64,000 nucleotides of DNA, taken from the NCBI GenBank assembly GCA_045633705.1, contig JAZQYV010000017.1:2916-66915 (forward strand). Direction: 5' to 3'. The notes beneath the pieces were generated by a model, which was not told where the DNA came from, ran no database searches, and saw only the letters and a program-made list of their open reading frames with translations. The translations under genes were made by a program, and so were the position numbers. Shown here piece after piece: positions 9,029 through 52,239 of this stretch (positions are counted from its first letter, which is position 1; every line of letters begins with the position of its first letter). This stretch comes from Candidatus Onthoplasma sp. (lineage in GTDB: Bacteria; Bacillota; Clostridia; Christensenellales; UBA1242).

Positions 9029-9042
9029 TATATCAAGTATTG

Positions 9043-9111
9043 CGCAAAGCAAAAGCTCAACAGCTTTATAAGGCATATTGTGCCTTGTTAGGCAAAGCCT
9101 CATGCTTTGCG
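9043..9111 (+). ncRNA. candidate structured element E1 (four-way junction, 5' leader of methyltransferase gene)
   Basis: 9-bp closing stem CGCAAAGCA/TGCTTTGCG enclosing hairpins 9052-9067, 9070-9086, 9090-9100; same architecture at 49454-49532 and 52098-52168. Confidence 0.45.
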
Positions 9112-9128
9112 TCTAAAGCGAGGATTTT

Positions 9129-9728
9129 ATGCAACATTATTTTATTGAAAAACAACACAAACCAAGTGATTATTTTGAATTTGAAGATGTGGTCGAGGAT
9201 ATGAAGTTAAAATTTCGTTCTTGTGATAGTATTTTTAGTAAGGATGAAATTGATATGGGCACACAAACCCTTTTAAACACAGTATTTGATAAGCTTGACC
9301 TTTCGGGCAATGGATTAGACTTGGGTTGCGGATATGGGGTTATTGGTATTTCAATTATTAAAAAATTAGGTCTTAATTGCGACATGGTAGATGTTAATGG
9401 CACAGCAGTTGATTTAGCATTACATAACTTGATGCTTAATGGCATTAGGGCGGGGGCAAATGTGTTTAAATCAAATGGTTTTGAAAGCGTACAAAACAAT
9501 TATGACTTTATTGTAACCAATCCACCAATTAAAACAGGCAAGAAACTTTTGTTTGAACTGATGGAAGGTTGTTTTAACCACTTAAATAATGGCGGAACCT
9601 TAACACTTGTAATACGTAAGGACCACGGCGAAGAAAGCCTTAAGAAAAAGCTAATTGAATTGTTTGGCAACTGCGAAATATTAAAACGTAACAAAGGGTT
9701 TTATATATTACACTGTATTAAACAATAA
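9129..9728 (+). CDS. class I SAM-dependent methyltransferase, RsmC/RlmG-type small domain
   Basis: 199 aa; motif I LDLGCGYGVIGI; motif IV DFIVTNPPI. Confidence 0.8.
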   Translation: MQHYFIEKQHKPSDYFEFEDVVEDMKLKFRSCDSIFSKDEIDMGTQTLLNTVFDKLDLSGNGLDLGCGYGVIGISIIKKLGLNCDMVDVNGTAVDLALHNLMLNGIRAGANVFKSNGFESVQNNYDFIVTNPPIKTGKKLLFELMEGCFNHLNNGGTLTLVIRKDHGEESLKKKLIELFGNCEILKRNKGFYILHCIKQ

Positions 9729-11886: not shown

Positions 11887-11892
11887 AATATT

Positions 11893-12012
11893 ACCATAAA
11901 GAGTGCGTAAGGGACAGCCCCGTTGACCGCACGGCAACCTGCATATGTAAGGTGCCAAAGGCTGAATGATGGGTTTATTAGTAGGAAATCCATCTAACGA
12001 TGGCTTTTTTTA
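11893..12012 (+). promoter_or_regulatory. SAM riboswitch (SAM-I core with SAM-IV-like 3' side, i.e. SAM-I/IV type) with terminator expression platform
   Basis: AAGAG-UGCG-UAAGGGACAGCCCCGUUGAC-CGCA-CGGCAACCU...AGGUGCCAAAGGCUGAAUGAUGG matches the SAM-I core (GGGA..GCCC..UGA, GGCAACC...GGUGCC). GGCUG can pseudoknot with CAGCC. P1 is CCAU/AUGG. The 3' P1 strand GAUGG competes for CCAUC of the terminator CCATC-taac-GATGG + T7. Confidence 0.7.
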
Positions 12013-12054: not shown

Positions 12055-12330
12055 ATGAAACAAACACAAAGAAAACAACATTTAGTAAAACTAAACAATG
12101 CAAAGGAAGGGAATGAGTTTATTGAATATTTGGAGCAAAATGGTTTTGACAATATTCATAATCTTAGCTTTGAAAATTTGCGAATTAAAGTTATTGGTGT
12201 TACTGATAAGAAATTTGGAGCGGTAAGCGTTACTTGCTTGGCAGCGTTAGCAAGCAGTAAAATTTATCCTATTAGTGTTGATGAATTTAAAAATTGTGTT
12301 GAATTGAAAAATCAAGACTATAATTTATAA
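12055..12330 (+). CDS. hypothetical 91-aa protein, only gene downstream of the SAM riboswitch
   Basis: AAGGAGA RBS; no motif recognised; followed by an independent promoter for the T-box leader. Confidence 0.6.
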   Translation: MKQTQRKQHLVKLNNAKEGNEFIEYLEQNGFDNIHNLSFENLRIKVIGVTDKKFGAVSVTCLAALASSKIYPISVDEFKNCVELKNQDYNL

Positions 12331-19942: not shown

Positions 19943-20548
19943 ATGACATTATTTGAACTAATACGTAAAAAGCATGAAGATAGAATACTTGCAAAAGCCA
20001 AATTAATAGAAGAAAATAGATTAAAGCAAGAGTAAACAGATGAAATATGTACAACACACGAAGTAGAAAGTGTTTGTGATGAACAAGCAGAAATTAAACA
20101 AGAGACATTAGAGGAGAAGATTCTAAATAGCAAAATACTAGTAGATTATGTTATATCTATGTATCACGACGTGAAAGGGGATTGGGAAAACAGAGATTTC
20201 CTTCAAGAATATTTTTTGAGTGACGTGGAAATAAAAGATATGCAACCTGGAGAAAAATATAGCGTAATGCAAATAACTGGCAAAAACATTGGCTTAAAAG
20301 CAACATTAATAATTAAATATGGAAGCCCTGTTGATGTTTCAGCAGAATTAGTAGATTGTGATGGAAAATTGTGGTTTGGAGATACTAGACTTTCTATGAC
20401 AAGATATATACATTTATATAAGGACGATACGATTTCAACGCTAAACGACATGGTAAATGAAAGAAATGTAAAAGTATTAGAAAGATATAAAGAAGATATT
20501 GTACTAAAACAAAAAGGTCAAGAAACAGTTAGTCAGATTTTTAAATAA
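19943..20548 (+). pseudogene. tandem paralog of 19356-19925 interrupted by one in-frame TAA (20033-20035)
   Basis: TAGGAGAAC RBS + ATG 19943 gives MTLFELIRKKHEDRILAK...KQE*. The same frame continues without further stops into the 20159-20548 track ORF (GEKYSVMQITGKNIGLKATLII). Confidence 0.6.
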
Positions 20549-48556: not shown

Positions 48557-48562
48557 TGCTTA

Positions 48563-49111
48563 TTAATTATATAATGTTATCTTTTTTAAATCATTTTCAT
48601 TAAATTTTTCAACCCAAATTATATCTTTTTTAAAGCTATATTCTTCATTGTTGTATAGGTTAATTATAATATATGGATATGCAGAAAGTTTGTTAAATTT
48701 TGTAATGTTTTTATCATCAATATAAGCAAAACATTTATGGCTATTGTTTACAATAAATTGACGTGTTAAAAATGTTTTTTCTTCCAAAGTTTGACTTTCG
48801 GCGTATATATAAATTAATTGCTCGTTTGCATATTTTTGTAATAATATTTGATATTGCTCGGGATTTTTAATTATATCAATATCGGTTAAAACTATTTTGA
48901 TGCTAATATTTTTACTTTTGTATCGTTTTTGTAAGTGTTTGCATGTTTTAAATGTAATATTGTCAAATTCATTGTTGGCACCAATTATAAAGGAGTTTAC
49001 TCCGTTGTGTATGGCATTTATGAAATGGCTTTCTAAATCTTTTTTTAGTATATTTGGTACAAATATTAAATTTTCATCACTTAAAACCCCATAACATTTT
49101 TCATTTAACAT
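48563..49111 (-). CDS. hypothetical protein (weak resemblance to YpsA/DUF1273 SLOG-type proteins)
   Basis: 182 aa; one of the few minus-strand genes; AAGGAGA RBS; strong own promoter. Confidence 0.5.
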   Translation of the reverse strand: MLNEKCYGVLSDENLIFVPNILKKDLESHFINAIHNGVNSFIIGANNEFDNITFKTCKHLQKRYKSKNISIKIVLTDIDIIKNPEQYQILLQKYANEQLIYIYAESQTLEEKTFLTRQFIVNNSHKCFAYIDDKNITKFNKLSAYPYIIINLYNNEEYSFKKDIIWVEKFNENDLKKITLYN

Positions 49112-49143
49112 AAATTTTTCTCCTTAAGTTTTAAAATCACCTA

Positions 49144-49188
49144 ATTGACTATAATTCAATTATAGCGAATGTCAGTCAATTAGTCAAT
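49144..49188. promoter_or_regulatory. candidate operator: inverted repeat plus palindrome in divergent promoter region
   Basis: ATTGACTA (49144-51) ... TAGTCAAT (49181-88); internal palindrome TATAATTcAATTATA (49150-64); direct GTCAAT repeats. Confidence 0.45.
49159..49187 (-). promoter_or_regulatory. sigma-70-type promoter for 48563-49111
   Basis: Minus strand reads TTGACT, 17 nt, TATAAT. Confidence 0.7.
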
Positions 49189-49228
49189 GAGTTTTTCGTA
49201 ATAAAATTTACATAGAAGGAGTTTTGTT

Positions 49229-49432
49229 ATGAAATTTGAAACTTTTGGTTTAAATGTTGCTAAACATAGGATAAAAAATAATTTATCTGCGTATGAATTA
49301 AGTTTAAGGTTAGGTAAAGATGCAAGTTATATAAACAAACTTGAAAATGCCAAAATAAACCCTAGCTTAAAAATGATGATAGCAATTAGTGAGAATTTAA
49401 AATTAAATATATGTGATTTATTTAAGGAATGA
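49229..49432 (+). CDS. XRE-family helix-turn-helix transcriptional regulator
   Basis: 67 aa; NLSAYELSLRLGKDASYINKLENAKINPSLKMMIAISENLKLNICDLF. Confidence 0.8.
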   Translation: MKFETFGLNVAKHRIKNNLSAYELSLRLGKDASYINKLENAKINPSLKMMIAISENLKLNICDLFKE

Positions 49433-49453
49433 AAACATATAGTATAATAGGGG

Positions 49454-49532
49454 CGGAGTCGGGAGCAAATTTTGCAAGCAAAATTTTGTATCGCGTAAGC
49501 GATTGGCAAGGCGGAGCCTTGCGCTCCCTCCG
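49454..49532 (+). ncRNA. candidate structured element E3 (four-way junction)
   Basis: Closing stem CGGA-(gtc)-GGGAGC / GCTCCC-TCCG. Hairpins 49467-49486 (AAATTTTGC..GCAAAATTT), 49490-49503 (ATCGC-gtaa-GCGAT) and 49506-49522 (GCAAGGC-gga-GCCTTGC). Confidence 0.45.
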
Positions 49533-49670
49533 TATTGTAAAATGATATATTTATTAGGTGTAGCAATGATATTGGATAGATTGAATTGTGGAGTAAAGCA
49601 ACAAATTGTTGCACTAAATTTTTGATTGTAGGAAAGTATCAACTGAATTTTGTAATTCAGGGAGATTTTA

Positions 49671-49718
49671 GTAACTATTTTTAAGTTATTGCACTTAAAA
49701 TAGTTGCTATTTTTTTTG
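49671..49718 (+). terminator. strong rho-independent terminator
   Basis: 14-bp stem GTAACTATTTTTAAG / CTTAAAATAGTTGC with one bulge, followed by TATTTTTTTT. Confidence 0.8.
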
Positions 49719-49786
49719 TTTTAATATATAATCCTTTTTGATAAATGTTTATTTATTAATATATTTTTATTTTAAGGAGATTTTAT

Positions 49787-52079: not shown

Positions 52080-52097
52080 TAAAAAATAGGCGATGTG

Positions 52098-52168
52098 GGA
52101 CAAAGCGTGCGGCAATGCCGCACAAAATGCTGGCGCATTTAAATAGGCGTGTAGCCTTTGCTTTGTCC
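52098..52168 (+). ncRNA. candidate structured element E2 (four-way junction)
   Basis: 9-bp closing stem GGACAAAGC/GCTTTGTCC. Hairpins GTGCGGC-aat-GCCGCAC (52107-23), AAATGC-tggc-GCATTT (52125-40), AGGC-gtgta-GCCT (52145-57). Confidence 0.45.
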
Positions 52169-52239
52169 TTTATTATAAATAAGCAAAATTGTTCATATAA
52201 TTGGACAACTTTGTAATATAATAATATAAAGGAGTAAAC

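Follow-up and report, generated by a model that had tools for sequence, protein, structure and literature searches.

A stable four-way-junction element in Candidatus Onthoplasma that may belong to a family of miniature mobile cassettes

The rplS–frr interval and the E3 junction

The stretch of Onthoplasma DNA analyzed here (64 kb; hereafter the window) carries a variable cassette between rplS and frr (48557–49432). The cassette comprises a minus-strand YpsA/SLOG-like ORF (48563–49111; Pfam PF06908, a borderline match of 27.7 bits) and, on the plus strand, an ORF for an XRE HTH protein (49229–49432; Pfam PF01381). At its 3′ edge lies the element that is the subject of this study, E3 (49454–49532, plus strand), a 79-base, very stable four-armed junction. 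Directly 5′ of E3 on the same strand is the flank motif TATAATAGGG (49443–49452), which consists of a −10-like box, TATAAT (49443–49448), and a G run. On the other side, the closing helix is followed by the tail TATTGTAAAATG, which is a poor U tract and gave no call in a terminator scan. E3 is accompanied there by 140 nt of lineage-specific, hairpin-rich DNA (49533–49672, plus strand), recognized by folding and by the terminator scan, in which a terminator-like hairpin (49598–49612) is followed by a T run and a second hairpin occupies 49643–49660. Outside the element, the conserved frr upstream region and promoter (49673–49732, plus strand) align with the corresponding DNA of L001, L003, L007, L043, and L044, all of which lack E3; a promoter scan places the frr promoter at TTGCTA (49704–49709) and TATAAT (49727–49732), separated by a 17-nt spacer.

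The first-pass annotation had described E3 as the 5′ end of an ORF-less promoter-to-terminator unit. As regards the promoter half, the TATAAT box upstream of E3 is real and forms part of a TATAAT(A)GGG flank common to other members of the family described below. The structure taken for the terminator at the far end (~49668–49715), however, pairs inserted DNA with the conserved frr promoter region. Nor is the unit strictly free of ORFs: a putative 27-codon ATG ORF, MIYLLGVAMILDRLNCGVKQQIVALNF, lies just after E3 on the plus strand (~49542–49625), nested in a listed 40-aa TTG ORF (49503–49625), and its product would have a hydrophobic N terminus, although the frame lacks a Shine–Dalgarno sequence.

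The fold of E3 is real and is exactly as first described. Its outer closing helix pairs CGGA (49454–49457) with TCCG (49529–49532) over 4 bp and is followed by a 3-nt GTC bulge, after which an inner closing helix of 6 bp pairs GGGAGC (49461–49466) with GCTCCC (49523–49528). The three hairpins enclosed by these helices are all perfect: hairpin 1 (49467–49486) has 8 bp and a CAAG loop, hairpin 2 (49490–49503) has 5 bp and a GTAA loop, and hairpin 3 (49506–49522) has 7 bp and a GGA loop. The GNRA character of the hairpin 2 loop, which had been singled out as a feature, is incidental, as loops vary across the family. When E3 was folded alone and unconstrained, the minimum free energy structure and the centroid both coincided with the proposed junction, at −35.4 kcal/mol; shuffled sequences averaged −22.4 ± 3.5 (z = −3.7), and none of 200 shuffles was equally good. 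The junction was also kept when the whole 277-nt intergenic stretch was folded.

Structures of this kind are rare in the window. Both strands were scanned with a descriptor for a closing helix enclosing three hairpins with short linkers (≤6 nt), and the matches were ranked by ViennaRNA energy. The descriptor is informative only after that ranking, since pairing alone returned ~140 matches, and it yielded three outliers in 64 kb: E2 (52097–52169, −37.7 kcal/mol), E1 (9042–9112, −31.4 kcal/mol), and E3 itself (49461–49528, −31.0 kcal/mol). The next best match in the window reached −19.8 kcal/mol, and the top matches in 10 Markov-shuffled windows ranged from −12 to −19 kcal/mol. A local-fold scan of the window found no unusually stable multi-branched structures beyond E1, E2, and E3. 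Because the energies of all three are far from both the window background and the shuffles, the E3 fold is not a product of chance.

Comparison with related genomes indicates how E3 came to occupy this position. Relative to close relatives, the window contains ~1.1 kb of extra DNA (48557–49672), comprising the YpsA/SLOG-like ORF, the XRE ORF, E3, and the 140 nt that accompany it. In L001, L003, and L007, whose Frr proteins are 88–91% identical to that of the window, the frr promoter region follows directly after rplS and the 49533–49672 DNA is missing too; the YpsA-like/XRE cassette is missing from these three loci and from L078–L081. Two other relatives, L043 and L044, which were reached via their YpsA-like homologues, have the same cassette in the same place but contain neither E3 nor the 49533–49672 DNA. 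There, XRE is followed by an ordinary hairpin and U-run terminator, and the XRE–frr gap measures 131–136 nt, as against 354 nt in the window. The orthologous interval of close relatives, where the first-pass annotation had proposed to look for the element, is thus without E3 even when the cassette is the same. Because these same-cassette relatives have a plain terminator and no E3, the element is evidently a lineage-specific insertion and, to judge from this pattern, a recent one. A blastn search with 49433–49690 against phages, plasmids, and every fetched related locus found nothing similar. The exact E3 segment had no match in viral contigs, and two degenerate family patterns found there either nothing or chance matches lacking a four-way-junction fold.

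The two-gene cassette is an observation in its own right. A YpsA/SLOG-like protein of 165–198 aa, encoded divergently from a small XRE HTH protein beside rplS, occurs in some Onthoplasma relatives and not in others. Loci noted for the YpsA-like/XRE pair are the window (48557–49432), L043, L044, L045, L077, and L084, and in L084 the cassette is followed by rpmF, not frr.

E1, E2, and further members of the family

To relate the three outliers to one another, we used a covariance model (CM R1) built from E2 orthologues together with reverse-complemented copies from L077 and L002; E1 and E3 were left out, and the search was run filter-free over the whole window. E2 was recovered on the plus strand at 77.1 bits (E = 1.3e-18) and on the minus strand at 33.6 bits (E = 8.6e-07). 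E1 followed on the minus strand (27.4 bits, E = 4e-5), and E3, also on the minus strand, ranked fourth in the window (25.8 bits, E = 1.2e-4). Lower scores were obtained for E1 on the plus strand (16.3 bits, E = 0.047), for the best unrelated match (plus strand, 14.2 bits, E = 0.17), and for E3 on the plus strand (11.7 bits, E = 0.79). E1 and E3 are thus the top non-self matches of a model from which both were absent, which agrees with the earlier assignment of E3 to the same family as E1 and E2. The AGC/GCT closing pairs and the AGGC/GCCT hairpin core noted as common to the three are likewise real, and E3 has, as elsewhere in the family, no linker between its closing helix and its first hairpin. 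Taken together, these sequence comparisons support the view that E1, E2, and E3 belong to one family. The helix order of E3 had been thought to parallel that of E2; because the best CM R1 scores of E1 and E3 fall on the minus strand, both lie instead in the orientation opposite to E2.

E1 (9042–9112, plus strand), a member in the same orientation as E3, is located between the −10 box and the Shine–Dalgarno sequence of a methyltransferase gene that starts at 9129. In five relatives with methyltransferases 82–89% identical (L087–L091), the promoter is the same (TTGATT, a 17-nt spacer, and TAAAAT or TATAAT) and is followed by a leader of only ~20 nt, E1 being missing from the orthologous 5′ UTR. 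E1 is therefore an insertion in the methyltransferase 5′ UTR. A few kilobases from the methyltransferase locus, one sublineage (L158 794–2710, L159 227–2218, and L160 1–2001) encodes a protein of 638–666 aa with weak HNH and HA domain matches, in the position taken by ABC-transporter genes in other relatives.

E2 (52097–52169) has a different history. It is conserved between cdsA and an M50 protease gene, and its family sense is the minus strand: its flank polarity puts a TATAAT box on that strand at 52177–52172 and a U-rich tail towards the cdsA stop codon. The first-pass annotation had implied that E1 and E2 are leaders placed before start codons. This role does not fit either element, given that E1 is missing from orthologous 5′ UTRs and that E2, with its minus-strand polarity, precedes the probable promoter region of the following gene. 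Orthologues of E2 are found at 13 cdsA/M50-protease junctions and are missing in L002 and L005. In their alignment, 94.5% of the cells in the helices are paired and 12 of 28 pairs have changed on both sides; none of 500 shuffles reached the observed values, and slid registers paired only 34–48%. The 11-bp closing helix, the hairpin 2 stem, and the GTG/CAC at the base of hairpin 1 are invariant, whereas the third codon positions of unchanged CdsA residues show only 55–68% identity in these genomes. Because this core is invariant while synonymous sites are near saturation, E2 is an old, retained copy under purifying selection.

The interior of E2 has also been inverted. In L077 (13593–13667), L079 (11730–11804), and L080 (3786–3860), the 50 bp between the 11-bp closing inverted repeats are reverse-complemented relative to the ten other genomes, with no change in the orientation of the closing repeats or of either flank; a very short segment has been inverted in situ. 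In several genomes the flank beside E2 (window 52170–52179) is the perfect palindrome TATTATAATA, and a TATAAT hexamer is therefore present on both strands there.

Further members emerged outside the window: over 327 kb of relatives, CM R1 detected E2 orthologues, the L002 copy that had been used in building it, and one new copy in L087. The L002 copy (698–785) lies after rnhB in the rnhB–yraN gap, and its reverse strand opens with GGGCTGAAAGC immediately followed by GTGCGAT...ATCGCAC, matching both the closing helix and the first hairpin of E2. The L087 copy (20134–20198) is partly degenerate and lies in the infC–rpmI gap, which measures 158 nt in L087 and 35 nt in L089, where the copy is missing. 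Alongside the copy are a further long hairpin and an internal direct repeat of 12 nt, CGAGTTTTGAAT. In a more distant genus, L165 (16383–16473; also L164 and L166–L169) carries, upstream of recO, a perfect four-way junction of 91 nt that comprises an 11-bp closing helix and three hairpins of 8–11 bp, with identical 7-mers (TGAATAT) 22 nt out on each side. Its architecture is the same as that of the family and its sequence is different; CM R1 does not detect it.

Across the ~0.5 Mb of related DNA surveyed, copies were seen about once per 15–30 kb, by extrapolation. Every one is intergenic, with a GC content of 0.44–0.54, and the arms of the closing helix are perfect inverted repeats of 10–13 bp. 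TATAAT(A)GGG occurs on one flank at three independent loci, namely E3, L002, and the E2 orthologues (on the minus strand), and every E2 orthologue keeps a variant of the −10-like hexamer in spite of indels. The opposite flank is U-rich, as in GTTTTTT in L002 and, among E2 orthologues, TTCGTTTTTTTT in L004. E1, inside its 5′ UTR, has neither the TATAAT(A)GGG box nor the U tail. A scan for consensus sigma-70 promoters found no −35 partner for the element-side TATAAT boxes, inspection of E1, E2, E3, L002, and L087 for target-site duplications revealed only chance AT-rich 5-mers, and there is no BLAST-level similarity among the copies. G-U pairs occur almost exclusively on the gene-sense strand (23 vs. 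2), which folds better in 14 of 15 copies; this strand bias is only a hint of tolerance at the RNA level, because replichore GC skew predicts the same bias.

Competing explanations for the junction

E3 does not correspond to a known RNA. At gathering threshold, an Rfam search of the whole window returned only a SAM riboswitch (11891–11975), and E1, E2, and E3, for which an Rfam search had been suggested, are all without a family match; at E ≤ 10, the DNA around the three elements gave chance snoRNA-type matches only, at ≤21 bits and far below thresholds. ARAGORN found no tRNA or tmRNA in the window, and no reverse transcriptase, as expected of a retron, is present near E3, whose neighbours are XRE and frr. 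Readings as a retron, a tRNA-like RNA, an SRP or 6S RNA, a ribozyme, or an r-protein leader were dropped, on the grounds that Rfam gave no match, that a reverse transcriptase and internal loops are lacking, and that there is no connection with the relevant genes. The SAM-I aptamer (plus strand) matches RF00162 at 48.5 bits (gathering score, 44.4), with most of P4 missing in the alignment, and precedes a 91-aa ORF starting at 12055.

Several explanations of the family can be weighed against one another. That E3 is a chance structure or an artefact of metagenome assembly is exceedingly improbable: E3 does come from a single contig, and a protein search for the neighbouring ORF gave a match at 100% identity on just one contig, but its folding energy is far outside that of shuffles and it has a family resemblance to elements in many independent assemblies. 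We consider it very unlikely that the junctions are cis-regulatory leaders, whether riboswitches or protein-binding structures, that control the gene downstream. Real riboswitches can contain four-way junctions, one of them (the SAM-I aptamer) lies in the same window, and E1 is located between a promoter and a Shine–Dalgarno sequence. Nevertheless, the downstream genes are unrelated (methyltransferase, M50 protease, frr, yraN, and rpmI), five relatives lack E1 in the corresponding 5′ UTR and E3 is likewise missing from relatives, and members occur in both orientations and have no Rfam match. Moreover, the helices are perfect, the linkers are 0–3 nt long, the loops are variable, and the invariant columns fall in the helices, which leaves no conserved pocket. 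More generally, a gene-specific regulatory RNA is unlikely. Strand symmetry raises the alternative that the element is a DNA-level site for the host, for instance a cruciform or clustered palindromic binding sites for a protein, the RNA fold being irrelevant; the parts of E2 that are conserved (the closing repeats and the hairpin 2 stem) are exactly those left unchanged by inversion. We regard this as improbable, as the palindrome sequences are wholly different between loci, which leaves no common binding site, and the excess of G-T wobble pairs on the gene-sense strand hints at tolerance at the RNA level, a comparison confounded by GC skew. Hardly more probable is a complex or bidirectional terminator, or an mRNA-end stabilizer, evolved by the host in place at each site with neither mobility nor common ancestry. 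E3 stands in the place of the XRE terminator of relatives, E2 and the L002 copy begin 6–35 nt past stop codons, A/T-rich stretches are present on both flanks, and either strand folds; the L002 copy and several E2 orthologues have U runs past the closing helix, where the terminator scanner cannot model a branched stem. What such an origin leaves unexplained are the AAAGC/GCTTT pairs, the TATAATAGGG flank, the covariance-model scores, and the homology between the first hairpins of L002 and E2 (GTGCGAT...ATCGCAC); in addition, the genome uses ordinary hairpin terminators, and E1 lies inside a 5′ UTR.

A more serious rival, to which we assign a modest but real chance, is that the elements are autonomous small-RNA genes. 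In this model, a −10 box would direct transcription of a four-way-junction RNA of ~75–95 nt from the G run, with the closing helix and the U tail acting as its terminator; E2, on the minus strand, would be the conserved functional gene and founder and E3, E1, L002, and L087 younger paralogues, and the RNA would act in trans through its shape, for instance in protein binding. The polarity of TATAAT(A)GGG, junction, and U-rich tail at three independent loci is as this model predicts, and the start expected ~7 nt past the −10 box in E3 and L002 coincides with the first base of the closing helix. Likewise, the E2 core is under purifying selection, its helices covary, and −10-like hexamers are kept in all E2 orthologues. 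Set against this, loops and junction linkers vary, so that no seed or recognition sequence can be proposed; in L077, L079, and L080, E2 remains intact although its interior is reversed with respect to the flank motif; L002 and L005 have lost E2; and no −35 element was found. In most E2 orthologues, moreover, the box is only 1–5 nt from the helix, so that a normal start would fall inside the closing helix, and E1 lacks both the box motif and the U tail. A related proposal, which we advance tentatively as possible, is that an undescribed class of self-contained four-way-junction small-RNA units, each with a −10 box, a fully helical junction, and a closing helix that also serves as terminator, is proliferating in the genome-reduced gut Clostridia of UBA1242, with E2 fixed, selected beyond synonymous saturation, and recognized by a host factor through its shape and its closing-helix sequence, inversion of the interior being tolerated.

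The best reading of the data is that E3 behaves more like a miniature mobile cassette than like a gene-specific regulator. Specifically, we favour, with confidence that is about evenly balanced, a model in which the E3 family is a structured cassette resembling MITEs and Correia elements that gives rise to a passive four-way-junction RNA and not a riboswitch-like leader. The pattern is MITE-like because it combines inverted-repeat ends, filled and empty sites (seen among close relatives at the E3, E1, E2, and L087 loci), both orientations, in-situ inversion, a promoter-like box, and a terminator-like tail. According to this model, E3 would be a young copy, confined to its lineage, of a small family of dispersed repeats in genome-reduced Onthoplasma (UBA1242). 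The repeat unit would span ~85–100 bp, with the TATAAT(A)GGG box on one side, a GC-rich core, and a mostly U-rich tail on the other side; the core would consist of a closing inverted repeat of 10–13 bp, usually with AAAGC/GCTTT ends (GGGAGC/GCTCCC in E3), around three short perfect palindromes. The family would act as a non-autonomous cassette, gained and lost at AT-rich intergenic sites in either orientation, with an interior that can flip between the closing repeats. Transcription, from its own −10-like box or by read-through, would then produce a compact four-way junction with almost every base paired. The role of the junction would probably be passive, providing a fully paired 5′ or 3′ end structure, or a terminator-like stop where the U tail is kept, and it would involve no ligand- or gene-specific sensing.

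For E3 itself, which occupies the place of the simple XRE hairpin terminator of relatives, the consequences would depend on its box. If the TATAAT fires, the start would be expected at ~49454–49456, at the first base of the closing helix, giving a transcript with a fully paired 5′ end; given the weak U tract, read-through to the hairpin at 49598–49612 or to the structure at ~49668–49715 would be likely. If the box is silent, E3 may instead serve as the 3′ structure of the XRE transcript, replacing the ancestral hairpin terminator.

Several features do not sit easily with a MITE-like cassette. There is no target-site duplication, no BLAST-level similarity among copies, and no linked transposase, and the copy number seen is low. 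The box is without a −35 element, the U tract of E3 is poor, and the three palindromes of the interior are ordered. MITEs are typically AT-rich, whereas these elements are GC-rich. In addition, a purely selfish element would not predict the invariance of the E2 core, which therefore points to a host function at the E2 locus.

Relation to known repeats and implications

Bacterial MITEs, such as Correia elements, QMITE of Coxiella, and the BOX, RUP, and SPRITE elements of pneumococcus, are small, non-coding, inverted-repeat-bounded, and intergenic, and they vary in presence or absence between relatives; they occur in both orientations, form stable transcript folds, and in some cases carry sigma-70-like promoter boxes, and in addition inversion is possible in Correia elements and SPRITE resembles a terminator (PMC10969869). 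Each of these traits is paralleled in the E3 family. The family differs from Correia elements and other MITEs, however, in lacking target-site duplications and nucleotide similarity from copy to copy, in having closing repeats of only 10–13 bp, in being GC-rich within an AT-rich genome, and in folding its three ordered palindromes into a four-way junction instead of one long hairpin, and no cognate IS is known for it. REP and BIME sequences, which are associated with RAYT transposases, are GC-rich extragenic palindromes located after genes and have been proposed to function in termination and mRNA stabilization (PMC3733652). The E3 family resembles them in being composed of GC-rich extragenic palindromes placed after genes. 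REPs, in contrast, are single palindromes of 20–40 bp with a GTAG or CGTC tag and a high copy number, while members of the E3 family are multi-hairpin and have no terminal GTAG/CGTC tag that we could see.

Selfish, structured, and relatively GC-rich palindromes that spread in reduced, AT-rich genomes include the Rickettsia palindromic elements and the GC clusters and double-hairpin elements of mitochondria. These families have a recognizable consensus among many copies, and Rickettsia palindromic elements also insert into genes; in the E3 family, the copies seen are all intergenic and are highly divergent. In topology (a closing helix and three further helices) and in size (70–90 nt), the family recalls the SAM-I aptamer and tRNA, but it gives no Rfam or ARAGORN match, its loops are 3–5 nt long, and it has no internal loops and no conserved unpaired core.

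Elements of this type bear on how structured RNAs are sought. Their strong folding energies and compensatory changes mean that they can pass for riboswitch or leader candidates in structure screens, and they can be exposed by checking orientation, empty orthologous sites, and inversion. The E2 locus, at which the core is invariant and yet the interior is inverted in one lineage, constitutes a clean natural experiment on which part of the four-way junction is selected. For any partner IS or HUH/RAYT-type gene, the ends of interest are GGGGACAAAGC or TATAATAGGG.

Retrieval by Frr places the window among Candidatus Onthoplasma MAGs, while a metagenome scan with Frr yielded almost no close relatives. 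Onthoplasma belongs to the family UBA1242 of the Christensenellales, within the Clostridia, and has genomes of 0.8–0.9 Mb (PMC12306168). Genomes of this size are expected to shed repeats and non-essential RNAs, yet Onthoplasma still appears to gain, keep, and flip a GC-rich four-way-junction cassette. This would imply either an unrecognized spread of small structured DNA that proceeds without an obvious transposase, or an unrecognized small RNA that acts through its shape.
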